This document shows positions 16,453 through 29,249 of a stretch of 64,000 bases of DNA, in pieces (position 1 is the stretch's first letter; each line of letters starts with the position of its first letter). The notes under the pieces are model-generated. The model did no database searches. It was not told where the DNA came from and was given only the letters and a program-made list of their open reading frames with translations. Both the position numbers and the translations under genes were made by a program. Origin of the DNA: Escherichia coli (lineage in GTDB: Bacteria > Pseudomonadota > Gammaproteobacteria > Enterobacterales > Enterobacteriaceae); NCBI RefSeq assembly GCF_003019035.1, contig NZ_CP027447.1; one strand, written 5' to 3'.

Positions 16453-18676
16453 TTTCGGACTCCAGTTGCGCAACCTTTTCTGTGTTTAAACCTGCTTTGA
16501 GTAATAGTGATTGCATCGAAACTTGTAATTCGCGTTGAATTGTCAGAACGCGATCCAACGTTTCCTGGCTGATAACGCCTTCGGTGACCAAAAACTTGCC
16601 GAGCGGCAGAGAACTGCGTTCATGGCGCAATAACAACACGTTAATTGCTGAACGATTAATATGACCGAGCGTGGTCAGTATTTCGGCGAACAGGAACTGA
16701 TGCGGCACATATTGCCGCCAGATTTCACCGGCCTGCTGTTCCGTGAGCCACTGATGCTGAACCGCATTGTACAACATTGCCCGCGGATCGTGACCGCGTC
16801 GGCGCGCATACCAGTGGCGTAACCCCGTGACAATTTGTCCCCGCAGAACAATGACGTAACGCACTTTGCGTCCGACTTTACGCGTCAGGGCCGCCAGCGA
16901 AACCGGGTCAATACCATCTTCACTGCCGACAATTAACTCATCATTTTCCAGACGCAGCGGCAGCACTGCATAATGCAGCGCCACGGAGGCCGGCATCTCG
17001 GCAATCAGTGATGAAGGGATCTGCCAGGCGTCGATCGACTCCCACGCCACGCCGTTTTGCTCTGCCAGCGCCTGTGCCAGCTGCTCGGCGCTAATCAGCC
17101 CCTGCATCAGCATTGAACCGCCAAGGCGTAGACCTTCGACGCGATTACGCAGTGCTGTATCGAGTTGTTCTTCAGTGATGACCTGATTTTCCAGCAGAAT
17201 TTGACCTAACGGGCGCAACGAGCGGGTATCGCCAGTCACGCTGGGGAAGTCATGCGTTGTTTTATCCCACGCCACGCGACGTGGATCGCCGTGTTGAAGT
17301 ACCTGTTTTAACGCGCGCCAGTTGGCCATGAAGTTAATCAGGTTGCCCCAGAAAAGACGCAGGACAGATAGTAGCCCCTGCGTCAGGCCGTAGTAGCCAG
17401 TGACGAAAATCACCCGCTGCACGATGCGGTTAACCATCAAGCCAAAGTTTAGCCACAGCAGGGTCATTAACCATGCGCTGCCGCTGAAAATAGAAAGGAA
17501 ATGCCAGGCATCGGGCCACAAACTTTCATACGCCAGTAACAGCAAAAGCTGGATCATCACCAGCATCGCGAGGAAGCTGACAAAGTTACTGATTGCCCCT
17601 TTGCGGTCGCGCCAGAGAAAGTAGTTCAGCGTCAGGCTGGAGGTCCATTTGTGGGTTTTAAAGCCCTGGAAAACAATGCCGATGATCCAGCGAGATTTTT
17701 GTCGAACCGCCGTCGAAAAGGTATCGGGGAAATATTCGCGCACGCAGATCATGTTTGACGTCCGCGCGTGCTGTAAAAATTTACGCTGCTCGCGTTCTTT
17801 GGCTTCGTCCACCACCGGAAAACGGACAAAAATTTCCGTCATACCTTTTTCTTTCAGGCGGAAACCAATGTCGTAATCTTCAGTAAGACTCTGCACGTCG
17901 AAAGCAATACCGTCACCGTCAGCTAACAGTGCGGTCACGGCGCGGCGGCTGAAACAAGTACCGACACCTGCGCTGGGCACCTGTCCGGCGAGGGCTTCAC
18001 GCACCGGAACATCTTTGCCATGCAGTTCTGAAAACTCATCAATGTAAGTCATGCTGGTGAAGTGCGTCCATTCGCGTTCGAATGGGTATACCGGGATCTG
18101 AATCAGATCTTTACGCTCGACCAGATAGTTGAACAGACGCAATTCCATCGGTGAAATTACGTCTTCGGCGTCATGCAGAATAAAACCAGCAAAAGCGAAA
18201 TTGGCGCTACGCTCAAACTGGGTGATGGCGTCCAGCACGTTGTTCAGGCAGTCGGCTTTGCTGGTGGGGCCAGGACGCGCGCAGACTACCTTATGCACGT
18301 TTGGGAAGCGAGCGCACACTTCGTCAACATCACGCTGAGTATCGGGGTCGTTGGGGTAGGTGCCAACAAAGATATGATAGTTTTCATAGTCGAGCGTGGT
18401 CGCCGCCAGCTCGGCCATATTGCCGATGACGCCCGTTTCATTCCACGCCGGAACCATAATCGCTAACGGTTTTTCATCTGGTTTATACAGTTCGCGGTAA
18501 CTCATTCGCGGGTAGCGGCGATAAACACTCAACTTGCGTTTAATGCGGCGTACCCAGTAGACGACATCAATAAAAAAATCGTCCAGCCCGCTGATGAACA
18601 TGATGACCGCTAACGTTATCGCGATTACTTTTAAGCCATATAGCCAGGTTGCAAAAACATCAAGAAGCCAGTCCAC
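16439..18676 (-). CDS. nfrB: bacteriophage N4 adsorption protein B (inner-membrane glycosyltransferase)
   Basis: 745-aa ORF, membrane N-terminus plus GT2-like domain; overlaps the nfrA start (operon). Confidence 0.92.
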   Translation of the reverse strand: MDWLLDVFATWLYGLKVIAITLAVIMFISGLDDFFIDVVYWVRRIKRKLSVYRRYPRMSYRELYKPDEKPLAIMVPAWNETGVIGNMAELAATTLDYENYHIFVGTYPNDPDTQRDVDEVCARFPNVHKVVCARPGPTSKADCLNNVLDAITQFERSANFAFAGFILHDAEDVISPMELRLFNYLVERKDLIQIPVYPFEREWTHFTSMTYIDEFSELHGKDVPVREALAGQVPSAGVGTCFSRRAVTALLADGDGIAFDVQSLTEDYDIGFRLKEKGMTEIFVRFPVVDEAKEREQRKFLQHARTSNMICVREYFPDTFSTAVRQKSRWIIGIVFQGFKTHKWTSSLTLNYFLWRDRKGAISNFVSFLAMLVMIQLLLLLAYESLWPDAWHFLSIFSGSAWLMTLLWLNFGLMVNRIVQRVIFVTGYYGLTQGLLSVLRLFWGNLINFMANWRALKQVLQHGDPRRVAWDKTTHDFPSVTGDTRSLRPLGQILLENQVITEEQLDTALRNRVEGLRLGGSMLMQGLISAEQLAQALAEQNGVAWESIDAWQIPSSLIAEMPASVALHYAVLPLRLENDELIVGSEDGIDPVSLAALTRKVGRKVRYVIVLRGQIVTGLRHWYARRRGHDPRAMLYNAVQHQWLTEQQAGEIWRQYVPHQFLFAEILTTLGHINRSAINVLLLRHERSSLPLGKFLVTEGVISQETLDRVLTIQRELQVSMQSLLLKAGLNTEKVAQLESENEGE

Positions 18677-18855
18677 ACAAAAACCTTACATTAACGCTGG
18701 TTATGTTTAGGGTGGCGTATATTAAAGTTTTTTATGAATTGTGACAGCTTTTTATCATTAATAGGTAGGATTATTGCGGCACGTTATTTTTACACTGGTT
18801 ATAAAAGTTGCCGATTGCGTAGAATGTAGACAAAAGCGTGGTGTCAAGGAGGGGA

Positions 18856-20160
18856 GGGTAACGCAGGGAAAGATTACGAAAGCCCGCTCCCCGCAAGGAC
18901 TGACGCCAGATAGTTTCTGTCCATGGCTGCTTTTCGCATCTTACGTCTTAACCCTGCCTTGAATACCTTATCATTCGTCAAAATATTAATAGCGATGTGC
19001 CGTATCCCTGAAAATAATTCTGCTGCATTTCCTCTTCTTATTTTGCAGTCGTCTTCATTCATTACCACGTCCAGACGCCAGTGCAGCTTATTCTCCACGT
19101 GCCAGTGGTTTCGGATTGCTGTGGCGAACTTCTCTGCGGTTAAATCAGCAGAACTGATATAATATCTGACCGTCATTTCGGGCTCTTTCTTTTGTTCTGC
19201 TATTATTGACCGAAAGGAGACTGCCACGCATAATTTCTTCAGACCTTTCCATTCAAACGTGAAATCAATAAGTTCATCAGGGACATCGCAAACAATGTGA
19301 AGACGGATTTCTTCTCTGCCGTGACTCTTTTCACTCATTGCGTAACTGTCATGCTCTGGATTATTTAATTCTTTCAGCGGAAATTTTTCCTCGAAGGCTT
19401 TATTTAGCCGCCCCTGGTTTCCTTTTACAGCGAATAAATAATCACCTCCCTGTTTTTGTATCTTCTCTGCAATATCTTTCTGGCAACCCATCGCATCAGT
19501 TGTGATGATTTTTCCTTTAATATCCAGCATGTTAAGAAGTTCTTGGATAGCTGTAATCTCATTGGATTTCTCATCCGTCCTGATCTGTCCGATGACCAGA
19601 CTATGCATTGTTGAGAACGCACTAATGACATGAATCGCTCCCTTGCGGCGACTCTTGTCATAAGAGTGCCGGAGCGTTTTTCCATCAATTGCAATGACGC
19701 CTTTATCATCTGAAGAATGGCAGTCACGCATCCAGTTAATAAAGCACTCGTGAAATTTTGCAGGACTGATACAGGATACAACTCTGGCAATGGTATCGTG
19801 AACAGGAATACCATTTTCAAAATCACCATATTGCTTCAAAAAATCGAGATGTGTTTCCCCAAAATCCTCTATATCTTCCCAGCCTTCTGCACCAGAAATA
19901 ACGGCACAAATAGTCAACAGTAGAATATCCGACAATTTATGTTCCACTTTCCAGGCTTGTCTGTACTCGGGAATAACAGAAATATGTTCTATCAATTTTT
20001 TAAGTACCATTTTGTTCTCCTTAATTATGTAAGGAGTATTTGATCATGTATAAGCAATAAAAAACAGCTTCAGGTAATGAGGAATATCTCAATTTTTAAA
20101 CATAAAATGCGAATTATTTAGTACAAAAAAGCAGCGTTACGTGATCTTTCCCTGTGTAAT
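18856..20160 (-). mobile_element. H-repeat / ISAs1-family insertion sequence (about 1.3 kb)
   Basis: Contains the 378-aa H-repeat-associated transposase; imperfect terminal inverted repeats centred on CAGGGAAAGAT (18861-18878 versus reverse complement of 20139-20156, 15/17 identical); boundaries approximate to about 5 bp. Confidence 0.75.
18874..20010 (-). CDS. ISAs1-family (H-repeat-associated, YhhI-like) transposase
   Basis: 378-aa [53 protein letters not shown]...; near-identical to the recalled E. coli H-rpt protein family. Confidence 0.9.
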
Positions 20161-20834
20161 CCCCCAGCTAAATCATGAACTTTTTGAGCCATTTTACTTA
20201 ATTCAGGGCAGGCTCCTAAACCTAATGGATCTGTGAAGCAACACGGATTCAGCACATAACCATAAGTGTTTAGTCCACCCAATACACCCAGGGGGTCACT
20301 CACCAGATACATCCCGGTCTCCGGCTCGTAGTACCGGAACCGGTTATAGCACAGCCCTGACTCCGCATCCCGCCACTGCCCCGCATACAGCAGACCGGGG
20401 TCCGCTTCTGCGTCTCGCTCCCCGCGCGGGTCCGGGTAGTCCCTGTCTGCGCTGACGCTGAGTGCCAGCCCCCACAGGCTGGTCTGCTCCGCACGCCACA
20501 CCACGTTACCCTGACTGTTAAAGAGCATCACCGGGCGGCCTGTCAGGTCGCTTACCGCATGGCTGGTCCGCGTCACCCACTGCGGGGCCACGGACGGGTG
20601 CGGCTGCCGTACCCGGCTGAACTGCTGGCTTATCAGCTCAAAGCCGTTAAACACCAGGTACCGCACACTGTACAGTTTATCATCGCGGTATTCCCGGATT
20701 TCCGCAATAGTGTCGCCGTCCCACAGATATGTGATGCGGAGGGCTTTTTGTTTGCAGCGTTTCTCTGTCCGTCTGCCACTGGCGTCGTGGCAGTATTCCC
20801 ACTGCTCACCCCGGGCGCTGCGGTAGCCGATCAC
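20118..20834 (-). pseudogene. orphan rhs C-terminal fragment (last about 206 aa of Rhs core plus a truncated alternative tip)
   Basis: Homologous to residues about 1260-1470 of the upstream Rhs through the PxxxxDPxGL core end (DPLGL); no upstream ORF or canonical start; only about 19 native residues follow DPLGL before the reading frame runs into the IS terminal repeat. Confidence 0.7.
20217..20834. repeat. direct repeat copy 1 (rhs core 3' end, orphan copy)
   Basis: About 620 bp, high-identity copy of 21694-22311 visible in both nucleotide and protein alignment. Confidence 0.75.
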
Positions 20835-20863
20835 GGCTGTCGTGGCGGAACTTTATCTCTTTT

Positions 20864-21253
20864 TTATTTAATCCAGTAAGCTAATCTCTCACCAATCTTC
20901 AAATTTTCTCTTTTGTAATAAAATACAGTATCAAAGTTAATGGATATTTTTTTCGCAATAACTTTGAATTTCAATTCAAATTCCGAATAAAACTCTAATA
21001 CTAACATTTCACGAGCATTGTCAGTGCAACTTGATAGCTTAATAAACTCCTCATTAAGATCGCATGACCAGTCCATAACACCGCTAATATAGCATGGCGT
21101 GTCTATTATTATTTCCAGTGTGTGATAGTAAGAAAGGTCATCACTCCCGGAAATAATCAAGCGATTATGTTCATAAAGAAAAACTGAAAAATCCAACCAA
21201 CTTTCTTTCCAATTATGGTGCTTTATATCATTAATTATGTTTTGCTCACTCAT
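20864..21253 (-). CDS. candidate cognate immunity protein for the Rhs C-terminal toxin
   Basis: 129-aa AT-rich ORF; its ATG overlaps the rhs TGA stop in a 4-bp ATGA overlap; positional analogy to rhsI genes; no family recognised from sequence. Confidence 0.6.
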   Translation of the reverse strand: MSEQNIINDIKHHNWKESWLDFSVFLYEHNRLIISGSDDLSYYHTLEIIIDTPCYISGVMDWSCDLNEEFIKLSSCTDNAREMLVLEFYSEFELKFKVIAKKISINFDTVFYYKRENLKIGERLAYWIK

Positions 21254-24200
21254 GGAATAGTTCCTGTAGGCAATGGTATATGAGTATCATTTGCAGCTCC
21301 TGGATTATAATTCGGACTTTTAGTTTTCAAATCAGATGTATGATGCCAACTGCCATCAGGAGAACCATACTCCCAACCATAGCCTTGATTAGTCGCAGGA
21401 TTTGTTCCACTTTGGCTTCTACCAATCCTATATATGGGGCCATTGGCAGAATTACTCCCTGCTGGAGCAGTAGGGTTTACATCATGAGCCCTTACTTCAT
21501 ATTTATAATTTCCGACGGTGAATTTTTCTTTAAATTTTATAGGGTAGTTATGCCCAGACAAGCCTTGCCGATGTAAAGCATAATTTAACACATCCTGCGG
21601 TGAGGTATTTTTAATTGCTTGATGCGCTTGTGCTGCTGTCATACCTTGAGAACGATTGTATTTATACCAATCATACATCACAGGACATATAGCTAATCCC
21701 AAAGGATCAACATACCCCAGCGGATTAGGCACATACCGGTAAGTCTGCTCACCCCCCAGCAACCCCAGTGGATCACTCACCAGGTACATCCCGGTTTCCG
21801 GCTCGTAATACCGGAACCGGTTATAGCACAGCCCCGATTCCGCATCCTGCCACTGCCCCGCATACAGCAGGCCGGGGTCGGCTTCCGGGTCCAGCTCCCC
21901 GCGCGGGTCCGGGTAGCCGGTGTCTGCGGGCAGGCTGAGTGCCAGCCCCCACAGGCTGGTCTGCCCCGGTCGCCAGACGGTTTTACCTTCACTGTTAAAG
22001 AGCACCAGCGGACGGCCCGTCAGGTCGCTCACCGCATGATTCGTTCGCGTCACCCACTGCGGGGCCACGGACGGATGCGGCTGCCGTACCCGGCTGAACT
22101 GCTGACTCAGCAGCTCAAAGCCGTTAAACACCAGGTGCCGTACGCTGTACAGTTTATCATCCCGGTATTCCCGCATTTCCGCAATACTGTCGCCGTCCCA
22201 CAGATACGTAAAACGGATTTTCTTCCGGTCGCAGCGTTTTTCCGTCCGCCTGCCGCTGGCGTCGTGGCGGTATTCCCACTGCTCACCCTGTGCGCTGCAA
22301 TACCCGGTCAGCTGGTCCCGGCTGTCCCACCGGAACCGCTCTGTTTCCGGGCGGTAGCCGTCACGGTGTCTGGTGCGGCTGACCATCCGGCCTGCGGCGT
22401 CATAGCTGTAGTCTGTGTTTCCGGTCTGTTTCAGCCGGTGGCCGCGCTGATACATGTCAGTATCCACGCTTATCCGGTGCCTGCCCGCCGACTGCGCCTT
22501 CAGGTAGCCACAACTGTCATAGCCATAGGACTCATCGCCTTCGCCATAGCCCAGCCCGGTGCCTGAGGCTGTCACCGCCGTGACCTGGCCGTTCCGGTCC
22601 AGCCGGTACTCCCGCCGTGTTTCCCGTCCGTAGTCTTCCCGGCTGGTGACAGCCGACATATTGCCCGCGCTGTCGTAACGGTACTCCCGCACCAGTGAGG
22701 GGAGCAGTCCGCCCCATGTGGCTTCCGCCGGGAAAAGTCCGGCGCGCTGGCTGGTAAGCTGACCGGCTGCATTCCAGCCCTGCTCACAGGCAAAACCCCG
22801 GTTACTGTGCCGGAGCACTTCACGTCCTGCCTCATCACGGCTGAACGTCAGCGTCTCATCCCCCGGCAGGATAACCTCCGTCAGTTCTCCGGCGGCGTTG
22901 TAGCGGTAGGTGGTTTTCAGCAGGGATTCACCGGGGTGTCTGTCGCGTTCATCTTCCGGTGGCAGGATACAGCGGATGACGGTGTGTTCATCGGGGTGGT
23001 GGTATTCAATGGCCCGTCGGCCCTGAGTGGTGACATTCACCCGCCCGCGTTCGTCATAGCCGGTGCGCTGTGATGTACCGTCCGGGCTGAAGATACCCGT
23101 CAGCCTGCCGGATTTGTCATAGGCATACTGCGTTTTGCCTTCCGGCGAGATGACTTCTGCCAGGCGGCCTGCGGCGTCCCGGCTGTAGAGGATAGTTTCC
23201 TCCAGGCCGTTAACCCTGGCGGTACAAAGGCCATCGGCGTCATAGCGGTAACGCCAGACCACGCCGCCCCAGTCACGCTCTTCCGTCACCCGTCCACAGT
23301 TGTCCAGAATATAACGGTATGACTCGCCCTGCGGATTGATGACTTCTGTCAGTTGCAGCGTGTCTTTATCGTAGCGGTACTGCCAGCGGTGGCCTTCACC
23401 GTCCGTTCGCGCCACCGGCAAATCGAACGGGCCGTATTCCATCGTCCAGACAACGCCGTTGCCGTCCGTCCAGGCCAGCAGGTTGCCGTGGCGGTCATAG
23501 CGAAATCCTTCCGCGCCGGTGCCAGTGCGTTCAAGGCCGCTCAGTTTATGGTGCTGCTGCCACCGTAACCGCACTGACTGACCGCCGGGGCCGCGCATCT
23601 TCACCGGCAGGTCGTGACCGCTGTATTCGGTGTGGTGTTCACGGCCCATCACGTCGGTGAGTGTTTCCGGCCGGTTGTGGTGGTCGTACTCTATGCCCAG
23701 ACGCCGTTCATCCTGGCGGAATATCCCCGACAGCAGCCCCTGCGGCGTGTACGCCAGCCGGGTCTCTTCGCCCTGTGGCGACACCAGACTTACCGGCAGG
23801 CCGCGTTCATCACACTGCTGCGTCCACATCTGCCCGGCAGGGTCGGTGATGTTGCTGAGCAGGCCGCGCTCATCATAGCAGTACTGCCACTCCGCACCGT
23901 CTGCCGCCGTGTAACGGCTTAACTGACCGTGTGCGGCGTTGTATTCAAACTTCTCCACCCGCCCGGCAGGGGAGTGGCGGGCCAGCAGGTGATGGAATTC
24001 ATCCCATTCATACATGGTGGTGCTGCCGTCCGGCGCTGCTTCCCGCAGAATATTGCCGTCAGGATCATAGTAATAACGGTGAATGCCCTTGCCGTCCGTC
24101 ACGGTGGTGCAGCCGTCACCATAGTCCAGCGTGGCGTTGTAATAGCCCTCCGCCCCGGTGACGGTCACGCACCGGCCCTGTGCATCGTAGGTGAAACGGC

Positions 24201-26103
24201 TCCACGTCTGGTCGTTATCGGACCAGCGGATGATCCGGTCCGCAGCGTCGTACTCATAAAACAGGTGGTAGTCCAGCCGCGCATCCGCTTCTGTCAGCCG
24301 CCCCCGCGCATCCTGTTCGTAGGTCGCCAGCATCTGTATGCCGTTATCCGTACGGTGAATGGCTTTCAGGTAGCCGCTGGCATGGTACGTCAGTTTAAGC
24401 CGGATCCCGTCGGTGTGACTGACACCCATGATGCGGTACTGGCTGTCGCGCTCAAACGTGATGCGGTTGCTGGCGGTGTCGCTCATCCCGCCCAGCATGT
24501 ACATCCGGTCTGCGGGGCTGTGTGCCAGACGGTCATCGCAGGTATCGTCAGTCACCGGGTGGCGCAGGCGCATTCCCGGAAAGGCGTCATAAAAGAAGCG
24601 GCTGCTCAGTGCATCACGGTCGAACAGCTCCAGGTAATCGTCGCGGCGGCGCAGAATGTACTGGGCGTGATACGGGTTAACCGCCGTATCACTGTCACCG
24701 TCGAAGGCAAATCTCAGCGTGGTTCCCTGGCTGATGATATCCACCCGGTTTCCCTGTTCACGCACCCAGGCGTATTCGCTCCAGGAGTCGCTCCAGCCCA
24801 CGCCCGTCAGACCATGCAGCGGCAGTACAGAACTGTGGAAACGGGTGAAGGAGAGGGGGAGTGTCTGGCCCAGCGTAAAGTCGGTACGTTCGTCGCAGTA
24901 TGCGCCGGTTACCGGATCGACAGGATCTGTTACCCATCTGATGACTTTATTGGCAATACTTTTTAACGACTTACCTGTTTTCCCCAGCAACGCGCCGAGC
25001 TTTGCCCCCAGCAGCTTCCCGCTTTTCCCCAGCAGGTTTCCCAGTTTGCCGAGTTTCGCCAGATTCCCCAGTTTTCCCAGCAGTCCCGCGGGCGGCAGAA
25101 GATAGCTGGCTATCGTTATTCCCCCCAGGATCATTCTCTGCCACGGCGGGAACTCCGGCTGGATATCCAGATAGGTCACCTGTTCACCGCCAATAAAGAC
25201 GTCCGGCGAACCTTCCACGATTGCCGCGCTGCACTCCAGTTTGTCCCCTTTGCGTGCGGCAGTCTGATTGTTGATAAAGACGTTGCTGCTGCCCTGGGCT
25301 ATCCTCGGTGGTTTGTTCTCCTTGTCGCAGAGCGCCGTGTCCTCACCGGCTTCCGGGAAATCCACGTCTTTTTTGATTTCGCCACGCCCGCCCACCATGG
25401 TGGCAAACTCCATTAATACCGGACCGGCGGGAAACAGAAGCGATGCGCCGGCGCTGACGCGATCCATAATACCGGCATTGCTGTCCGTCAGGGTGATAAC
25501 AGCGTTCCCCCAGGCCTTCGCCAGTGGTACTGCTTTTTCCGCTGCCGATTCAAGCAGGTCAGTGGCAATATCACCCCATGAGGGTTCCCCCTGTGGTGGA
25601 GAGGGTATTGCTTCAGTCAGGGGAGGAGGGGGAAGGGTGACGGCGGCCCTGGCAGCGGGCTTTCCGTTAATGTTTACATTTTTAGAACCAGTATTGATGG
25701 CCCCGTCCGTGTCACAAAAACTGTTTATCCATGATTCAAGCTGGTTCTGTTTCTCCTCCACATAATCACTCGCCTTATAGCTGGCATACATCAGCGCAGG
25801 CACCAGAACCAGCGCATAAGGGCCGGTGGCACAGGCGGCCATAATCAGGCAACCTTCTGCGATGGTCACTATCGCCCCCAGCACGGCCCCTGCCAGCGCC
25901 CCCAAAAAACTCTTGTGCTGAATTTCATCGCCCAGCCTGGCTGCGGGGGGGCCAGACTTTTTTGATGCCAACATCTGTGCAATGGCTTTGTCGTTGGCTG
26001 CCCGTTTCATCTGGCTGGCGACCATCGCCTGCTGTGACAGCATTCGCATTGCCAGCGTACCGCCTGCGGTCGCTCCCTGTGGCCCGCCTGGTCCTTCACT
26101 CAT
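21250..26103 (-). CDS. rhs: prePAAR/PAAR-domain Rhs-family polymorphic toxin (T6SS effector) with variable C-terminal toxin tip
   Basis: 1617-aa ORF: N-terminal AARLGDEIQH (prePAAR-like AARxxDxxxH), hydrophobic helices, PAAR-like segment (ARKGDKLECSAAIVEGSPDVFIGG), long YD/Rhs repeat region, core terminating at DPLGL, then a 147-aa low-GC tip. Confidence 0.9.
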   Translation of the reverse strand: MSEGPGGPQGATAGGTLAMRMLSQQAMVASQMKRAANDKAIAQMLASKKSGPPAARLGDEIQHKSFLGALAGAVLGAIVTIAEGCLIMAACATGPYALVLVPALMYASYKASDYVEEKQNQLESWINSFCDTDGAINTGSKNVNINGKPAARAAVTLPPPPLTEAIPSPPQGEPSWGDIATDLLESAAEKAVPLAKAWGNAVITLTDSNAGIMDRVSAGASLLFPAGPVLMEFATMVGGRGEIKKDVDFPEAGEDTALCDKENKPPRIAQGSSNVFINNQTAARKGDKLECSAAIVEGSPDVFIGGEQVTYLDIQPEFPPWQRMILGGITIASYLLPPAGLLGKLGNLAKLGKLGNLLGKSGKLLGAKLGALLGKTGKSLKSIANKVIRWVTDPVDPVTGAYCDERTDFTLGQTLPLSFTRFHSSVLPLHGLTGVGWSDSWSEYAWVREQGNRVDIISQGTTLRFAFDGDSDTAVNPYHAQYILRRRDDYLELFDRDALSSRFFYDAFPGMRLRHPVTDDTCDDRLAHSPADRMYMLGGMSDTASNRITFERDSQYRIMGVSHTDGIRLKLTYHASGYLKAIHRTDNGIQMLATYEQDARGRLTEADARLDYHLFYEYDAADRIIRWSDNDQTWSRFTYDAQGRCVTVTGAEGYYNATLDYGDGCTTVTDGKGIHRYYYDPDGNILREAAPDGSTTMYEWDEFHHLLARHSPAGRVEKFEYNAAHGQLSRYTAADGAEWQYCYDERGLLSNITDPAGQMWTQQCDERGLPVSLVSPQGEETRLAYTPQGLLSGIFRQDERRLGIEYDHHNRPETLTDVMGREHHTEYSGHDLPVKMRGPGGQSVRLRWQQHHKLSGLERTGTGAEGFRYDRHGNLLAWTDGNGVVWTMEYGPFDLPVARTDGEGHRWQYRYDKDTLQLTEVINPQGESYRYILDNCGRVTEERDWGGVVWRYRYDADGLCTARVNGLEETILYSRDAAGRLAEVISPEGKTQYAYDKSGRLTGIFSPDGTSQRTGYDERGRVNVTTQGRRAIEYHHPDEHTVIRCILPPEDERDRHPGESLLKTTYRYNAAGELTEVILPGDETLTFSRDEAGREVLRHSNRGFACEQGWNAAGQLTSQRAGLFPAEATWGGLLPSLVREYRYDSAGNMSAVTSREDYGRETRREYRLDRNGQVTAVTASGTGLGYGEGDESYGYDSCGYLKAQSAGRHRISVDTDMYQRGHRLKQTGNTDYSYDAAGRMVSRTRHRDGYRPETERFRWDSRDQLTGYCSAQGEQWEYRHDASGRRTEKRCDRKKIRFTYLWDGDSIAEMREYRDDKLYSVRHLVFNGFELLSQQFSRVRQPHPSVAPQWVTRTNHAVSDLTGRPLVLFNSEGKTVWRPGQTSLWGLALSLPADTGYPDPRGELDPEADPGLLYAGQWQDAESGLCYNRFRYYEPETGMYLVSDPLGLLGGEQTYRYVPNPLGYVDPLGLAICPVMYDWYKYNRSQGMTAAQAHQAIKNTSPQDVLNYALHRQGLSGHNYPIKFKEKFTVGNYKYEVRAHDVNPTAPAGSNSANGPIYRIGRSQSGTNPATNQGYGWEYGSPDGSWHHTSDLKTKSPNYNPGAANDTHIPLPTGTIP
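21253..21693 (-). other. Rhs C-terminal toxin domain (147 aa after DPLGL); candidate WHH/HNH-type nuclease
   Basis: Abrupt drop in GC content after the DPLGL junction; motif GSWHHTSD...NYNPGAAN...THIP near the C-terminus resembles the His-His...Asn...His arrangement of HNH/EndoVII-fold toxin domains. Confidence 0.45.
21694..22311. repeat. direct repeat copy 2 (rhs core 3' end, main gene)
   Basis: Homologous to 20217-20834; substrate for homologous recombination that would swap toxin tips. Confidence 0.75.
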
Positions 26104-26122
26104 GTGTTATCCCTCGTTTATG

Positions 26123-26584
26123 TCAGCGCGGCTGGTCCTTTTGGATGTCATTCTCCGGTGGCAACGGGGTGAAGCTCTTTATCACCTCCAGCAGCATCGT
26201 CTTTTGACTGTTCTTCAGGGATAAGGAGGTGCTGAAAGTGAAGGTCAGCAGCGTATCTCCACGCCGCTGGAATACGGCTATCTGGCTAATCCGCCCCTGA
26301 TTCCCTTCATCTTCCGGACCGTTCCAGGAATAATCCAGCAGCCAGGCCGGGGCCTCTGCCAGAGTGATTTCCCGGCAGGCATGTTCGGTGTACCCATCAA
26401 GTTTGCCCTGGTACAGCGCCAGCGTTTCCTGGTACAGCTCTGGTGTCAGGGTTCCCTGTGGAACGGCTTCGCGGGTAATGACCAGGTTGATGCCACTGTT
26501 ATCTGTGGACACCAGGACCTGCATTGACTGATCCTGCCATTGAGACGGCAGTTGAATGTGGCCTTCATTAAAAGTGAACTGCAT
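26123..26584 (-). CDS. DUF1795 / Eag-family effector-associated chaperone
   Basis: 153-aa ORF between vgrG and the prePAAR-Rhs gene, tightly spaced; size and position typical of EagR-type chaperones. Confidence 0.75.
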   Translation of the reverse strand: MQFTFNEGHIQLPSQWQDQSMQVLVSTDNSGINLVITREAVPQGTLTPELYQETLALYQGKLDGYTEHACREITLAEAPAWLLDYSWNGPEDEGNQGRISQIAVFQRRGDTLLTFTFSTSLSLKNSQKTMLLEVIKSFTPLPPENDIQKDQPR

Positions 26585-26611: not shown

Positions 26612-28513
26612 TCAGTTGATGAAAACAGAACCGCCCACGATGGTGATGCCATCCTTCGACAGCCTGATTACCGTCGATTCCCCGACCTGTAGCTGTATGC
26701 CATCCGGCGTCAGCGCAATTTTGCTTTCCTCCACGGCCAGCAAAATTTCCTTAATCGCCGTATAAGCCTGTATACCGTCGCCTTCGCCACCATTGTTTAC
26801 AGCGTCAACATGCACCGAACCGGCAATCGTGCCTCTGTCCTGAAAGACATCCTCAGATAAAGACCCTTTCAGTACTCCGGTGATCTTGTGGCCTTTTTCC
26901 ACCGTAAGAAGGCGGTTACCTTCCTGGATCGTGACCGTCTGGTCATTTTTTACGGTTTCGCGGTGATCGTGTTTTACGGTGGTGGTACGGTCGTTGAGCA
27001 CTTCGGTATCCATGTTCTTCTGCGCGTGGATGTAGACCTGTTCTCTCCCTGTCGCATCATCAAACTTCAGCTCATTAAATCCGCTGCCCATGTACGTTTT
27101 GGAGCGGATGGTCATCTGCGTCTTTGTTCCCGGCAGGCTGCCGGGGGTGCGGTTTTCCTGGTGGTAGGTGCGCCCCATAATGATCGGCTGGTCCGGATCG
27201 CCGTTGAGGAAGTCTACAATCACTTCCTGACCCACACGCGGTATCGCCAGGTGGCCAAAACCGGTGCCTGCCCACGCCTGTGCCACACGGATCCAGCACG
27301 AACTGTCTTGGTCTGCCGGGTTATAACGGTCCCAGTTGAACTTCACCCGCACGCGACCATGTTCGTCGCAGAAGATTTCCTCGCCTGCCGGTCCTGTCAC
27401 GACAGCGCTCTGCGGGCCGTCGACCAGCGGTTTCAGCAACGGCTGTGGTCGCCATGTTCTGTCTGCCGGGATCACCGCAAAATGGTTCTCCAGCGCCGTC
27501 CCCGCTCCCTGCCGTCCTGGCACCGCCTGTGGCTGTTCGCCGTGCAGTTCACTTGCCACCACCTGCCATTCCCGGTTCAGGTTCGCCTGCGGATGCCCCG
27601 TCAGCACAATTCGTCGTCCCGGCCATATCTCCGGCGAGCGACTCATTCCCCGCGCGGTTTCTGCATTGTTTCGCCAGCCGTCCATCTGCCAGCGGGCAAA
27701 GTTCTGCCCGTGGGCACCCTTGAAACGTCCGGGGTAGTCATACACTTCATACTGCGTGCGCTGGTAGTCCTGGTGCTGGCCTTCCTGTTCAAAACGTCCG
27801 GCCCAGCCGGGGCGTTTAAAGGTGTAGTCTTTGGTCACCACGGAAGAAGGGCGGATTTGTGCGCTGTAGCGGAACTGGCTGATGCAGAGGGTGCTCACCT
27901 CGGTACGGGTGTTCGGGTTCCATGGGATTTCAAAAGATTCGGGCAGATGGCGGACTGTGTCGCACAGCACCAGGCTCTGGTCGGTACTTTTGTAAGCATG
28001 CTCCTCATAAAAGAAGATGCCTTCCTCCGCCGCCATCCGGCACAGGAAATCGTAATCAGTCTCACCGTACTGGACACAAAACTCACGGGAAGGATGCGGC
28101 TCGCTGAACAGCGGACTCCATTCGGTCACCCCGTTTTCCTGCAACATCGTGCCGAGGATGCTTTTGATGTCCTCGTTCTGGAAGATACGGAAGTTCTGGC
28201 GCAGACCGGCACGCCACAGCGGCGGGTGCACCTTCATGCTGTACAGCATCTGGTTTTTGTCGTTCTCCCCCAGTTCAAACCAGGTCACCACGCCTTTCAC
28301 CCGGCGCTGTACTTCATCGCCCTGCCATATCGTCAGGTAGGCCATTTTGTCCAGCACCTGCGCAAATTCAAGGGAGAGAAACTGCTGGCTGACCAGGGAG
28401 AGATCGAGGGAAAAGAGCGAAGAGAGTGACTGGTTCAGATGAAAGGAAACCACCGCAAAAGCATCCGGCGGCAGGCCGTCCACTTCCAGTGTGAAACGTA
28501 ATCCGGTTGACAT
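26612..28513 (-). CDS. vgrG: type VI secretion spike protein VgrG
   Basis: 633-aa ORF starting MSTGLRFTLEVDGLPPDAF... with gp27/gp5-like regions and a C-terminal beta-helix-like segment; canonical VgrG N-terminus. Confidence 0.9.
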   Translation of the reverse strand: MSTGLRFTLEVDGLPPDAFAVVSFHLNQSLSSLFSLDLSLVSQQFLSLEFAQVLDKMAYLTIWQGDEVQRRVKGVVTWFELGENDKNQMLYSMKVHPPLWRAGLRQNFRIFQNEDIKSILGTMLQENGVTEWSPLFSEPHPSREFCVQYGETDYDFLCRMAAEEGIFFYEEHAYKSTDQSLVLCDTVRHLPESFEIPWNPNTRTEVSTLCISQFRYSAQIRPSSVVTKDYTFKRPGWAGRFEQEGQHQDYQRTQYEVYDYPGRFKGAHGQNFARWQMDGWRNNAETARGMSRSPEIWPGRRIVLTGHPQANLNREWQVVASELHGEQPQAVPGRQGAGTALENHFAVIPADRTWRPQPLLKPLVDGPQSAVVTGPAGEEIFCDEHGRVRVKFNWDRYNPADQDSSCWIRVAQAWAGTGFGHLAIPRVGQEVIVDFLNGDPDQPIIMGRTYHQENRTPGSLPGTKTQMTIRSKTYMGSGFNELKFDDATGREQVYIHAQKNMDTEVLNDRTTTVKHDHRETVKNDQTVTIQEGNRLLTVEKGHKITGVLKGSLSEDVFQDRGTIAGSVHVDAVNNGGEGDGIQAYTAIKEILLAVEESKIALTPDGIQLQVGESTVIRLSKDGITIVGGSVFIN

Positions 28514-29249
28514 AGCAACCTCCAGTAAAATGAATAATGATCCGTACCGTACAACTGCGGATAATGTGATAAGCGGGACGACTTCAGACGTTATTAGGGA
28601 AGGAACAGAAAATGCTATGGTTATGTGAGAATTTTGTTTAAATATTACTTTACAGAAACGGGTGTCTGTTCAGTCAAAAAAATAATCACAAGCTCAACCT
28701 CTTGTTTCTTGGCGTTATTCAGGACAGGTACGCATATCACAACGAGTAACAAAAACGCAAAGTTAAACCAATATTCATAATATATTTTTATTCACAGCAA
28801 TAAATAATCCAATTAACATTATTAAAATGAATGATTGCATAAGAAATATATGCTACCGCTCCACCCTGATAACATGATCTGCACATTGCACATCTTAACG
28901 TTGTTAAATACTGGCTCAATAGTGGATATTTTAAATTAGGAATTTATCAAATTCACTTGATAAATAGATTGAGTGAATAATATAACAATTAATGATGATT
29001 AATCGCGATTAAATTATTCATTGCTTTATATGATAGATGGCTTGTTTATAACGATGAAAATTTAGAAAGGGCATTGTGATCTACAATTGGAAGAAACACA
29101 GATTTAACTAAGTTTCATATACAAACATCTCGTGAAACTTTGAAAAATAAAAGCCTTCGATATTTCATATGTTTAATAAGTTTTTCTCTAATTTGTTGAT
29201 CAACAATACCAGGAGGTGATGCACCACGCCCTGAATTTGAACTTAATAA

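Follow-up and report, generated by a model that had tools for sequence, protein, structure and literature searches.

The window analysed here is a 64-kb stretch of Escherichia coli DNA in which, all on the minus strand, vgrG (28513-26612), a gene encoding a 153-aa protein (26584-26123) and rhs (26103-21250) follow each other in this order. Together with a small downstream ORF presumed to encode an immunity protein, they form an operon, an accessory T6SS island that has inserted into E. coli between nfrB and cusS. The intergenic gaps are 27 nt (vgrG/eag) and 19 nt (eag/rhs), the small ORF overlaps the rhs stop codon by 4 nt (ATGA), and a Shine-Dalgarno-like sequence precedes each of the vgrG, eag and rhs start codons. 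The following features were identified.

26612..28513, minus strand: vgrG, 633 aa, T6SS spike/tip protein, first gene of the operon (TIGR03361, RefSeq, RBS)
26123..26584, minus strand: eag/eagR, 153 aa, putative chaperone of the DUF1795/DcrB family (Pfam, phmmer, AlphaFold, Foldseek)
21250..26103, minus strand: whole rhs, 1617 aa, class I prePAAR Rhs effector (translation, Pfam, TIGR03696, RefSeq)
20864..21253, minus strand: 129-aa ORF, presumed cognate immunity protein (position, translational coupling)
20118..20834, minus strand: truncated orphan rhs fragment, the end of an Rhs core with an alternative tip (TIGR03696, RefSeq)
18874..20010, minus strand: ISAs1-family transposase, the island border on the nfrB side (RefSeq annotation, identical ECONIH1 sequence)

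The VgrG protein matches NCBIfam TIGR03361 VI_Rhs_Vgr with 625 bits (cut-off 186) over residues 7-517, its ATG is preceded by GGAGG as RBS, and an identical gene is named in RefSeq "type VI secretion system tip protein VgrG". The 129-aa ORF gave no match in an NCBIfam search and is named hypothetical protein in RefSeq; from its position only, it is presumed to encode the immunity protein. In the orphan fragment, TIGR03696 matches ORF residues 144-206 at 1e-19, and the RefSeq name is "RHS repeat domain-containing protein, incomplete".

The Rhs protein contains Pfam prePAAR_I, PAAR_motif and DUF6531 matches, at least 12 RHS_repeat matches and, in the vicinity of its C-terminus, a TIGR03696 Rhs_assc_core match. 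Its start codon is backed by GAGGGA 7 nt upstream, the internal ATGs being without RBS-like sequence, and the ECONIH1 RefSeq protein WP_022645327.1 has the same length and start. The protein can be divided as follows.

25945..26103, minus strand: N-terminal leader, residues 1-53, with a predicted long helix at 13-47 (RBS, AlphaFold)
25915..25944, minus strand: prePAAR motif AARLGDEIQH, residues 54-63 (AARxxDxxxH match)
25777..25914, minus strand: hydrophobic TMD region, residues 64-109, two predicted helices (hydropathy, AlphaFold)
25636..25716, minus strand: first part of PAAR, residues 130-156, ...NVNINGKPAARAAVT (weak Pfam match, Tre23 alignment, model)
25345..25635, minus strand: 97-residue insertion within PAAR, residues 157-253, a Pro-rich linker and then helices (alignments)
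25168..25344, minus strand: second, main part of PAAR, residues 254-312 (Pfam, model, conservation)
24928..25152, minus strand: post-PAAR region, residues 318-392, hydrophobic helix WQRMILGGITIASYLLPP and then a Gly/Lys/Leu-rich linker
24904..24927, minus strand: predicted N-terminal autocleavage motif DPVDPVTG, residues 393-400 (Tre23 alignment)
21694..24921, minus strand: Rhs shell, residues 395-1470 (RHS_repeat, DUF6531, TIGR03696)
21253..21693, minus strand: C-terminal toxin tip, residues 1471-1617, Ntox30 family (Pfam)

The original prediction, made for positions 24960-26584, had read AARLGDEIQH as a prePAAR motif. The features it named do lie there on the minus strand, but 24960 (Rhs residue 382) is structurally meaningless as a boundary. 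AARLGDEIQH is an exact match to AARxxDxxxH, the prePAAR pattern (PMC7773334), and the sole match in a six-frame translation of the window, the expected count being about 0.09 from residue frequencies and 0.0017 in a protein of Rhs composition. An alignment of 65 relatives, 30-45% identical to the query, shows at least 90% conservation at each of A54, A55, R56, D59 and H63, and the motif is modelled as beta strands (pLDDT about 97). Pfam PF25799, "Class I prePAAR effector Rhs1 motif", matches residues 54-100 weakly (E 1.4e-4). The leader that precedes the motif is modelled with pLDDT of about 95 at residues 21-40 of its helix; leaders of 30-50 aa also occur in Tre23 and in relatives from Pasteurellaceae, Erwinia and Serratia, many others starting at residue 3-6.

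The stretch of about 45 hydrophobic residues described next to the motif (FLGAL...MYASY) was found as residues 66-109, 44 aa with one charged residue (E82). The 19-residue Kyte-Doolittle windows reach 2.13 and 1.89, the highest of the protein, in overlapping blocks at 64-94 and 83-105, and the best 42-residue window (1.80) was reached by none of 500 shuffles (mean 0.63, maximum 1.42). AlphaFold places helices at 66-92 and 97-128 as a hairpin. The prediction of transmembrane helices in Rhs rests on hydropathy together with these two modelled helices. The two are parted by ATGP and carry GxxxG-type (small-xxx-small) motifs at G68-G72-G76, in which G72 and G76 reach at least 90% conservation among the 65 relatives.

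A PAAR-like segment had also been predicted, and Pfam PAAR_motif does match residues 267-310 (E 1.2e-8), but the domain is split by 97 residues, which had gone unnoticed. The first part shows a weak Pfam PAAR match at 132-152, alignment to Tre23 up to residue 139, beta strands at 134-156 with pLDDT 95-96, and conserved G134, G139, S140 and V143. The insertion is skipped in the Tre23 alignment (query 155 to 254 corresponding to Tre23 139 to 139) and is missing from most of the best 150 representatives. It is kept in relatives from Erwinia tracheiphila and Serratia microhaemolytica, with 45-55% identity to these in its C-terminal half (212-253) and about 35% in its N-terminal half, and its pLDDT is low (38-73). 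In the second part (pLDDT 92-96), C259, R284 and C291 are invariant among the 65 relatives. NCBIfam NF033420 gives a partial match of 45.6 bits, under the 124-bit cut-off for a full free-standing PAAR. The weak prePAAR_I score and this sub-cut-off PAAR score, neither strong alone, are expected because the domain is split and embedded. The AlphaFold model of the Rhs N-terminus comprises prePAAR strands, helical hairpin, PAAR strands and post-PAAR helix, and its top fold matches are the PAAR proteins 4jiw and 4jiv (target TM-scores 0.62-0.65).

The post-PAAR helix (320-335, pLDDT 85-92) is borderline in hydropathy (19-residue window 1.62 at 324-342) and aligns to "WERAILIAVEFLVPPS" of Tre23; EagR binds Photorhabdus Rhs1 at a second site as well, the postPAAR region (PMC8636562). 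This helix, the helix of the 53-aa leader and the 97-aa insertion are details that the original prediction missed.

Further downstream, DPVDPVTG aligns to G-D288-P289-I-D-V-T-T-G of Tre23, whose N-terminal fragment ends at P289 and whose cleavage is abolished by D288N (PMC8636562); by this alignment, cleavage of Rhs is expected after P394. The shell ends with two DPLGL motifs 17 residues apart (1444-1448 and 1466-1470), the same spacing as described for Tre23 (PMC8636562). The toxin tip begins directly past the second motif and matches Pfam PF15532 Ntox30 with E 1.6e-10 (model 29-103 of 103).

The gene immediately upstream of rhs had been proposed to encode a DUF1795-like protein. This was borne out, since its 153-aa product matches Pfam PF08786 DcrB, the family once named DUF1795, over the whole model (1-127 of 127, E 1.7e-27), and near-identical database proteins carry the NCBI name "DUF1795 domain-containing protein". 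By analogy with characterised systems, it is expected to be the Eag chaperone that shields the hydrophobic N-terminus of Rhs before firing.

The locus is not new: it is the published "vgrG1 island", or vgrGO1 island, of EHEC EDL933, located between nfrB and cusS. The vgrG1 / eagR (DUF1795) / rhsF island of that strain has been described, with z0707 as vgrG1 and z0706 as eagR (PMC7216683), in a paper that is older than the prePAAR concept and leaves the motif and the TMD unmentioned. Two reviews, with reference to Ma et al. (2017, Environ Microbiol 19:345), state that Rhs-CT delivery in E. coli requires vgrGO1 and eagR, located upstream of rhs-ct. The chromosomal site is the same (nfrB - ISAs1 - ... 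- rhs - eag - vgrG - cusS, EDL933 likewise having ISAs1 at the equivalent position), as are the sizes of eag (462 bp) and vgrG (1902 bp). The two Eag proteins share 98.7% identity, and over the first 420 residues of Rhs, which include leader, prePAAR, TMD, insertion and PAAR, identity is 97.4%. The C-terminal toxin and immunity genes differ: EDL933 Rhs has 1645 aa, against 1617 aa with an Ntox30 tip in the window, and downstream of it lie another small ORF, unlike that of the window, and an orphan gene for a zincin-like metallopeptidase toxin.

Among solved structures, Rhs1/Tre23 of Photorhabdus laumondii (PDB 7pq5, E 1.4e-33) comes closest to the Rhs N-terminus; it belongs to a VgrG-EagR-Rhs complex that has been dissected biochemically (PMC8636562). 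Both proteins share the leader, P-AAR-xxDxxxH, TMD1, PAAR, hydrophobic post-PAAR helix and D-P cleavage site and, further C-terminally, the shell, the double DPLGL and a toxin; the gene order vgrG-eagR-rhs is also shared (EagR being Plu0354 and VgrG Plu0355). However, the leader of Tre23 is about 20 residues shorter, no insertion separates its PAAR halves, and its toxin is an ADP-ribosyltransferase. Class I prePAAR effectors such as Salmonella Rhs1 (with SciW) and P. protegens RhsA (with EagR1) (Ahmad et al. 2020) resemble the window protein in AARxxDxxxH, TMD, PAAR, an Rhs cage of more than 1000 aa and an Eag gene directly upstream. Their motif lies near the N-terminus, whereas it is at residue 54 here; the crystal structure of Salmonella Rhs1 models residues 8-57 for prePAAR and TMD (PMC7773334). 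The class is defined by a "single TMD region", to which the window Rhs adds its borderline post-PAAR helix. Tse6 of P. aeruginosa (class II) is more distant, with about 450 aa, no Rhs cage and a true second TMD past PAAR.

As the components match named families and are arranged as in experimentally characterised systems, we consider, with a probability of roughly 0.88, that the vgrG-eag-rhs-immunity operon is a T6SS island encoding an Eag-chaperoned prePAAR Rhs effector carried on the co-encoded VgrG. The original prediction went one step further and stated that the trio looks like a complete spike-loading unit. The family matches and the arrangement agree with this, but "complete" depends on a T6SS core outside the window. 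The vgrG gene needed for this unit lies just beyond the range given in that prediction.

No T6SS core genes are encoded within the 64-kb window, so T6SS activity of the source strain is not demonstrable from it. This leaves room for the unlikely explanation that the island is a decaying remnant, its intact-looking genes no longer expressed or used and the T6SS of the source strain absent or disabled. The locus does decay in some strains, as rhs is frameshifted at the equivalent position in SCU-301, and many of the Rhs N-terminus and Eag records in the database come from truncated or fused gene calls. The flanking ISAs1 and orphan rhs fragment, and the finding of no promoter-like signal above chance upstream of vgrG, point the same way. 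In the window, however, the four ORFs (633, 153, 1617 and 129 aa) are all open and tightly coupled, with RBS-like sequences ahead of them. ECONIH1 carries, with 100% identity, a 3.5-kb segment that spans the toxin tip, the immunity gene, the orphan fragment and ISAs1; the toxin/immunity segment recurs with 100% identity in 12 or more sequenced strains from different hosts and is present at 80% coverage or more in 82 genomes. ECONIH1 also keeps a T6SS core elsewhere, at tRNA-Asp, with tssA, B, C, E, F, G, J, K, L (annotated icmH/dotU) and M, clpV/tssH and two hcp. An IS3 element follows hcp in that main cluster, at the usual place of vgrG, and no vgrG is annotated in the cluster, from which it follows that the T6SS of ECONIH1 is rearranged; the island VgrG could stand in for the missing one.

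It is very improbable that the 153-aa protein is instead a DcrB-like protein of the envelope that has nothing to do with Rhs handling and lies next to rhs only incidentally. The Pfam family is named DcrB, RefSeq names the protein "DcrB-related", the PsbP/Mog1 fold is widespread, and homology searches for Eag are confounded by DcrB, which is present in T6SS-negative bacteria too (Ahmad et al., PMC7773334). Nevertheless, the N-terminus MQFTFNEGHIQLPSQWQDQS is non-hydrophobic, and we read it as being without signal peptide or lipobox. EagT6 (6xrf/1tu1) is the best sequence match (phmmer, 1e-5), although identity is just 22-24%. In Foldseek searches of the PDB with the AlphaFold model (pLDDT 85.9), the best 13 matches were all EagT6 or SciW (E 7e-8 to 1e-5), EagT6 being first (6.6e-8, TM 0.67-0.73). 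SciW, too divergent for detection by sequence, was recovered by fold only, at 13-15% identity. These two stand ahead of all other PDB entries and beat DcrB (6e8a, 2e-4) by three to four orders of magnitude in E-value. The TMD-binding claw residues of EagT6, I22, I24, V39, S37, S41, L66, Q102 and I113 (PMC7773334), correspond in a pairwise phmmer alignment to M21, V23, V35, N33, T37, L62, Q101 and L113. With the exception of T37, these residues are invariant or reach at least 90% conservation among the aligned Eag sequences; the hydrophobic palm (M21/V23/V35), the knob (L62) and the glutamine (Q101) are retained. Four of the 12 published EagT6 contact residues (Q58, A62, L98, F104) map to dissimilar residues in this low-identity alignment. 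A downstream gene with prePAAR and a hydrophobic segment is present in five of six distant Eag loci (Eag 24-41% identical), and the 19-nt gap to rhs suggests co-translation.

It is scarcely credible that the hydrophobic segment, instead of being a chaperoned translocation domain, anchors Rhs in the inner membrane of the producer and makes it a surface-displayed or membrane-resident toxin: the two helices of the segment have a suitable length and hydropathy and look anchor-like in isolation, but they lie between prePAAR and PAAR, which must co-fold in the cytoplasm to cap VgrG, Rhs is without signal sequence, eag and vgrG are adjacent, and orthologous TMDs are held by Eag (6xrr, 6xrf).

For the Eag-chaperoned Rhs effector we propose the following mechanism. 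By homology, an Eag dimer would clamp the hydrophobic helices (about 66-109) in the cytoplasm of the producer and keep them soluble; as happens in Photorhabdus Rhs1, a second dimer would probably sit on the post-PAAR helix (320-342). The prePAAR strands (54-63), recognisable by motif and modelled fold, would fold back on the split PAAR (130-156 and 254-312), completing the cone, where H63 would probably coordinate zinc. Synteny and the work on orthologues suggest that this cone caps the blunt beta-helix end of the co-encoded VgrG trimer, and a T6SS core whose genes lie elsewhere (in ECONIH1 at tRNA-Asp) would fire the VgrG-Rhs spike into a neighbouring bacterium. Rhs carries the motifs for self-cleavage and may be cut behind both P394 and L1470. 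The hydrophobic helices may help the 147-residue Ntox30 tip into the target cytoplasm, and the 129-aa protein would protect the producer. For the allele in the window, we infer Eag-TMD binding, loading on its own VgrG and activity in the source strain. The original prediction was right, yet the finding is an ordinary one, this being an island already described in E. coli.

The genes encoding a T6SS VgrG, a chaperone candidate, a large Rhs protein and a short ORF were found packed into one operon on the minus strand of the window, at the site between nfrB and cusS. The features are the following:

28513-26612, minus strand, vgrG, 633 aa, T6SS VgrG, first gene of the packed operon
26584-26123, minus strand, gene encoding the 153-aa Eag candidate (PF08786)
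26103-21250, minus strand, rhs, 1617 aa, class I prePAAR Rhs effector
21253-21693, minus strand, Ntox30 tip of Rhs, putative toxin, overlapped by the ORF 20864-21253
21253-20864, minus strand, ORF of 129 aa, its start overlapping the rhs stop

In this operon vgrG and eag are separated by 27 nt and eag and rhs by 19 nt, and a Shine-Dalgarno-like sequence is present at every start codon. The range of the original prediction (24960-26584) corresponds to the 153-aa gene plus Rhs residues 1-382. The VgrG protein matched TIGR03361 with 625 bits (cut-off 186) and TIGR01646 with 442 bits (cut-off 122), and thus passes the threshold for the gp27/gp5-like spike family.

This island has already been described in the EHEC strain EDL933, where it includes vgrG1 (z0707), an eagR/DUF1795 gene (z0706) and rhsF (PMC7216683). 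Gene order and site are the same as in the window, with 98.7% identity for Eag and 97.4% for Rhs residues 1-420. Although the observation is real and its interpretation correct, the system thus counts as already known. The prePAAR motif, the two effector classes and the Eag-TMD structures were published in 2020, in a study whose screen included Escherichia genomes (PMC7773334), and a loading unit made of prePAAR-TMD-PAAR, Eag and VgrG has been textbook T6SS biology since then, which leaves little discovery value. The claim that the three genes form a complete spike-loading unit is supported as an interpretation, the word complete holding only with a T6SS core encoded elsewhere; no T6SS core gene was found in the 64-kb window.

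At the nfrB-cusS site of the window, an ISAs1 transposase and a truncated orphan rhs fragment border the island (18874-20834 together). The orphan fragment consists of a core end and another tip, and adjoins the transposase at the nfrB edge. In EDL933 the ISAs1 element is in the same place, whereas the orphan content is different and includes a gene for a zincin-like metallopeptidase toxin. On the other side a non-coding gap of 736 bp (28514-29249) extends from the vgrG start to cusS. Upstream of vgrG, in this gap, and downstream of rhs, no promoter-like or terminator-like site rose above shuffle expectation in the scans, so that the sequence gives no clue to how the island is regulated.

The window is chromosomal DNA of E. 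coli, and a 3.6-kb query across the locus showed 99.9% identity to many strains. The 5' module vgrG-eag-rhs was present at a coverage of at least 80% in 2135 of 5426 complete E. coli genomes (about 39%), and the segment comprising toxin, immunity gene, orphan fragment and ISAs1, at the same coverage, in 82 of the E. coli genomes. The difference in spread between module and segment fits the usual swapping of Rhs tips. In the E. coli strain SCU-301 the rhs gene at the same locus (16355-21204) is annotated as frameshifted and is followed by a different ORF, which indicates that the locus decays and swaps tips among strains. Such frameshifts in some strains could suggest an island that is decayed and no longer used; nevertheless each ORF of the operon is intact in the window and many strains carry an identical allele, and we regard decay as unlikely here.

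The E. coli strain ECONIH1 carries a 3.5-kb segment with tip, immunity gene, orphan fragment and ISAs1 that is 100% identical, and its RefSeq annotation lists at the same site an rhs of 4854 bp, as long as that of the window, a DcrB-related gene of 462 bp and a vgrG of 1902 bp. Its main T6SS cluster lies next to tRNA-Asp, holds every core gene and comprises tssB, C, E, F, G, J, K, M and A, tagH, dotU (tssL), clpV (tssH) and two hcp genes. In NZ_CP009859.1, at 245000-271000, an IS3 element and IS256/hypothetical fragments come after the second hcp, and no vgrG is annotated. Since this main cluster has no annotated vgrG, the island may supply the spike to a machine located about 380 kb away, and in the ST of ECONIH1 a needed spike may thus come from the nfrB-cusS island.

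The sequence AARLGDEIQH, which the original prediction placed in the Rhs N-terminus, is present at residues 54-63 (nt 25944-25915). It is the single match to AARxxDxxxH in the six frames of the 64-kb window, about 0.09 matches being expected from residue frequencies, and the model PF25799 (prePAAR_I) matches residues 54-100 with E 1.4e-4. When the Rhs N-terminus was used in a word-indexed search for homologues, nearly all entries retrieved were near-identical E. coli proteins, often truncated; the wider view of conservation came from an exhaustive representative search, which gave a 65-sequence N-terminal alignment with 30-45% identity to the window Rhs. In this alignment conservation reaches at least 90% at each of A54, A55, R56, D59, H63, G72 and G76, and C259, R284 and C291 are invariant.

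The hydrophobic stretch said to follow the motif corresponds to residues 66-109 and has the top hydropathy of the protein. Kyte-Doolittle means over 19 residues (KD19) peak at 2.13 and 1.89, in blocks 64-94 and 83-105, the highest in the whole Rhs, and the best mean over 42 residues is 1.80, against a mean of 0.63 and a maximum of 1.42 in 500 shuffles. Hydropathy and the AlphaFold helices 66-92 and 97-128 thus predict a transmembrane helix region (TMD) between prePAAR and PAAR. Beyond it the expected PAAR-like segment was also found, with the Pfam PAAR_motif at 267-310 (E 1.2e-8) and a weak first strand at 132-152; Pfam gives in addition DUF6531 and a long series of RHS repeats. The NCBIfam PAAR model matched with 45.6 bits, far under its cut-off of 124 bits, a low score that is to be expected of a PAAR domain both embedded and split and that was not counted against it.

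The AlphaFold model of Rhs residues 1-409 has a mean pLDDT of 72.7 and contains the following elements:

Residues 1-53 (window 25945-26103, minus strand), leader, a long helix by AlphaFold, before prePAAR
Residues 13-47, leader helix, pLDDT about 95 for 21-40
Residues 53-62, prePAAR strands, pLDDT about 97
Residues 66-92 and 97-128, helical hairpin by AlphaFold
Residues 134-156, first half of the PAAR strands, pLDDT 95-96
Residues 157-253 (window 25345-25635, minus strand), insertion of 97 residues, Pro-rich linker and helices splitting PAAR
Residues 176-237, the three helices that accompany the Pro-rich linker, pLDDT 38-73
Residues 256-310, second half of the PAAR strands, pLDDT 92-96
Residues 320-335, post-PAAR helix, pLDDT 85-92
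After the post-PAAR helix, Gly/Lys/Leu-rich linker, low confidence

In a fold search this model came closest to the free-standing PAAR proteins 4jiw (c1882 of E. coli) and 4jiv (target TM-scores 0.62-0.65; weak E-values, 0.075 and 0.34). As these alignments extend over about 177 columns, the two PAAR halves seem to close in the model into one cone around the insertion, although with such E-values the match is taken as supporting evidence only. The PAAR domain is predicted to be completed by the prePAAR, and the conserved C259, C291 and H63 are candidate zinc ligands.

The 153-aa protein encoded upstream had been called DUF1795-like, and it indeed matches the full model of PF08786 (DcrB, formerly DUF1795) with E 1.7e-27; near-identical database entries are named 'DUF1795 domain-containing protein' by NCBI. 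Since Ahmad et al. warn that DcrB confounds Eag searches (PMC7773334), further tests were applied. A signal peptide and a lipobox are absent from the sequence. A phmmer search of the PDB returned only the chaperone EagT6 (6xrf, 1tu1), at about 1e-5; SciW, another known Eag chaperone, was missed by this sequence search and recovered by the fold search alone. Among NCBIfam models none matches Eag or the 129-aa immunity candidate. The AlphaFold model of Eag, built from 18 homologues, has a pLDDT of 85.9 and a pTM of 0.81, and in Foldseek its PDB ranks 1-13 are EagT6 and SciW chains (E 6.6e-8 to 1e-5, TM 0.65-0.73), while DcrB (6e8a) is at rank 30 with E 2e-4 and PsbP-like proteins also stand behind EagT6/SciW. 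The RMSD of the Eag fold matches is high, about 8 A, which may come from the comparison of a monomer model with chains of dimer crystals.

The residues of EagT6 in contact with the TMD have been reported as I22, I24, V39, S37, S41, Q58, A62, L66, L98, Q102, F104 and I113 (PMC7773334), and could be mapped because the chain numbering of 6xrf is that of the paper. The palm residues I22/I24/V39 correspond to M21/V23/V35, the L66 knob to L62, Q102 to Q101, S37 to N33, S41 to T37 and I113 to L113, so that eight of the 12 contacts are identical or similar in a pairwise alignment of about 23% identity; Q58, A62, L98 and F104 are replaced by the dissimilar T54, Y58, G97 and A103. T37 apart, each of these eight mapped contacts is invariant or conserved to 90% or more among 18 Eag sequences with identities down to 23%. 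An Eag-type protein, with a fold like EagT6/SciW rather than DcrB, is supported by the Pfam match and the fold search, and a dimer is predicted to bind the TMD.

In the window Eag adjoins the prePAAR-TMD effector, directly upstream of it and 19 nt away. Species-representative genomes were scanned with the Eag alignment, and six loci were confirmed with narrow back-translated peptide patterns, two in Aggregatibacter and one each in Rodentibacter, Pasteurella, Lonepinella and Leclercia (24-41% identity). In five of the six, the next gene encodes a leader of 34-39 residues, an exact AARxxDxxxH and a segment with KD19 of 1.9-2.5. That the 153-aa protein is a DcrB-like envelope protein, or that the hydrophobic helices anchor Rhs in the membrane of the producer, is contradicted by several independent tests, namely the missing signal peptide, this linkage in five of six loci, the fold match and the N-terminal model.

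The best solved relative of the window Rhs is the Photorhabdus laumondii effector Rhs1/Tre23 (7pq5; E 1.4e-33), which has the same order of elements. In Rhs1/Tre23 the prePAAR-PAAR binds the VgrG tip, and EagR was found biochemically to bind TMD1 and the post-PAAR region (PMC8636562). The post-PAAR helix of the window Rhs, WQRMILGGITIASYLLPP, lines up with WERAILIAVEFLVPPS of Tre23, and because it matches this EagR-binding helix two Eag-binding sites would be expected in the window Rhs. At residues 324-342 the KD19 of this helix is 1.62, only just at the threshold. Class I prePAAR effectors are defined by a single TMD region, with none after PAAR (Ahmad et al. 2020, eLife 9:e62816; PMC7773334), and in the window Rhs this post-PAAR helix is borderline. 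Proteins of the class exceed 1000 aa and have YD/Rhs repeats that enclose a C-terminal toxin; the window Rhs agrees with this in its 1617 aa, at least 12 RHS_repeat matches, DUF6531, TIGR03696 and the Ntox30 domain past the second DPLGL. According to PMC6730261 and PMC7216683, Ma et al. 2017 (Environ Microbiol 19:345) reported Eag- and T6SS-dependent export for vgrGO1-eagR-rhs loci of E. coli. For the window allele we infer Eag binding and secretion, and its export would likewise be Eag- and T6SS-dependent.

The C-terminal part of Rhs contains DPLGL at 1444-1448 and again at 1466-1470, 17 residues apart, an arrangement described as the aspartyl autoprotease signature of self-cleaving cages of the Tre23, RhsA and TseI type; the tip of 147 residues starts at A1471. 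At the start of the shell D393-P394-VDPVTG, a D-P followed by xxxxTG, aligns with D288-P289-IDVTTG, the N-terminal cleavage site of Tre23. These motifs predict self-cleavage at both ends; the catalytic mechanism is still debated. The tip matches Ntox30 (PF15532) with E 1.6e-10 over model positions 29-103 of 103, and the 129-aa ORF (20864-21253) presumably encodes the putative immunity protein. Three E. coli proteins of 606-608 aa from other strains are 96-97% identical to the Rhs N-terminus over their first 390 residues and carry prePAAR, PAAR, DUF6531 and Tox-MPTase4 (PF15640), no Rhs repeats being recorded in them. They look like cage-less products of recombination between the full-length rhs and an orphan tip; one was seen on 31 contigs.

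The two extra elements of the system are the leader and the intra-PAAR insertion of an enterobacterial subgroup. Many class I effectors have the prePAAR motif at residue 3-6, and leaders of 30-40 residues are found in the Tre23/Pasteurellaceae subfamily. Compared with Tre23, the leader of the window Rhs is about 20 residues longer, and the 97-residue insertion has no counterpart in Tre23. The alternative starts M19, M21, M27, M32, M44 and L45 were rejected, an RBS-like sequence being present at M1 only, and a later start is also opposed by the confident leader helix and by the leader counterparts in relatives. The insertion is absent in most of the 150 best representatives, where query position ~255 aligns to their ~100-140. 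It is present in proteins of Erwinia tracheiphila and Serratia microhaemolytica (48-49% identity overall), and two metagenomic relatives have at the same point a shorter, different Pro-rich insertion.

Against Erwinia and Serratia the insertion shows 45-55% identity in its C-terminal half (212-253) and about 35% in its N-terminal half. The C-terminal half reads GPVxxExxTMxGGxGxIKxDVDFPEA (~212-253) and has an AlphaFold pLDDT below 50; such conservation together with low confidence is typical of a binding motif that takes up its fold only when bound to a partner. No description of this insertion was found in a non-exhaustive search of the literature. We tentatively propose, as an idea that is rather unlikely to hold, that in the E. 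coli/Shigella-Erwinia-Serratia subgroup leader and insertion could offer an additional surface on which a second Eag dimer, the tip of the cognate VgrG or the target membrane docks.

The finding is of practical use for annotation. In RefSeq the chaperone still goes by 'DcrB-related protein' and the effector by 'RHS repeat-associated core domain-containing protein', and sharper names are possible, namely EagR, class I prePAAR Rhs effector with Ntox30 tip, and immunity gene. If the proposed docking surface is real, it might determine spike specificity in E. coli, which has several near-identical VgrGs. A module with swappable tips that is carried by about 39% of the complete genomes is of relevance to work on the competition between strains in the gut.
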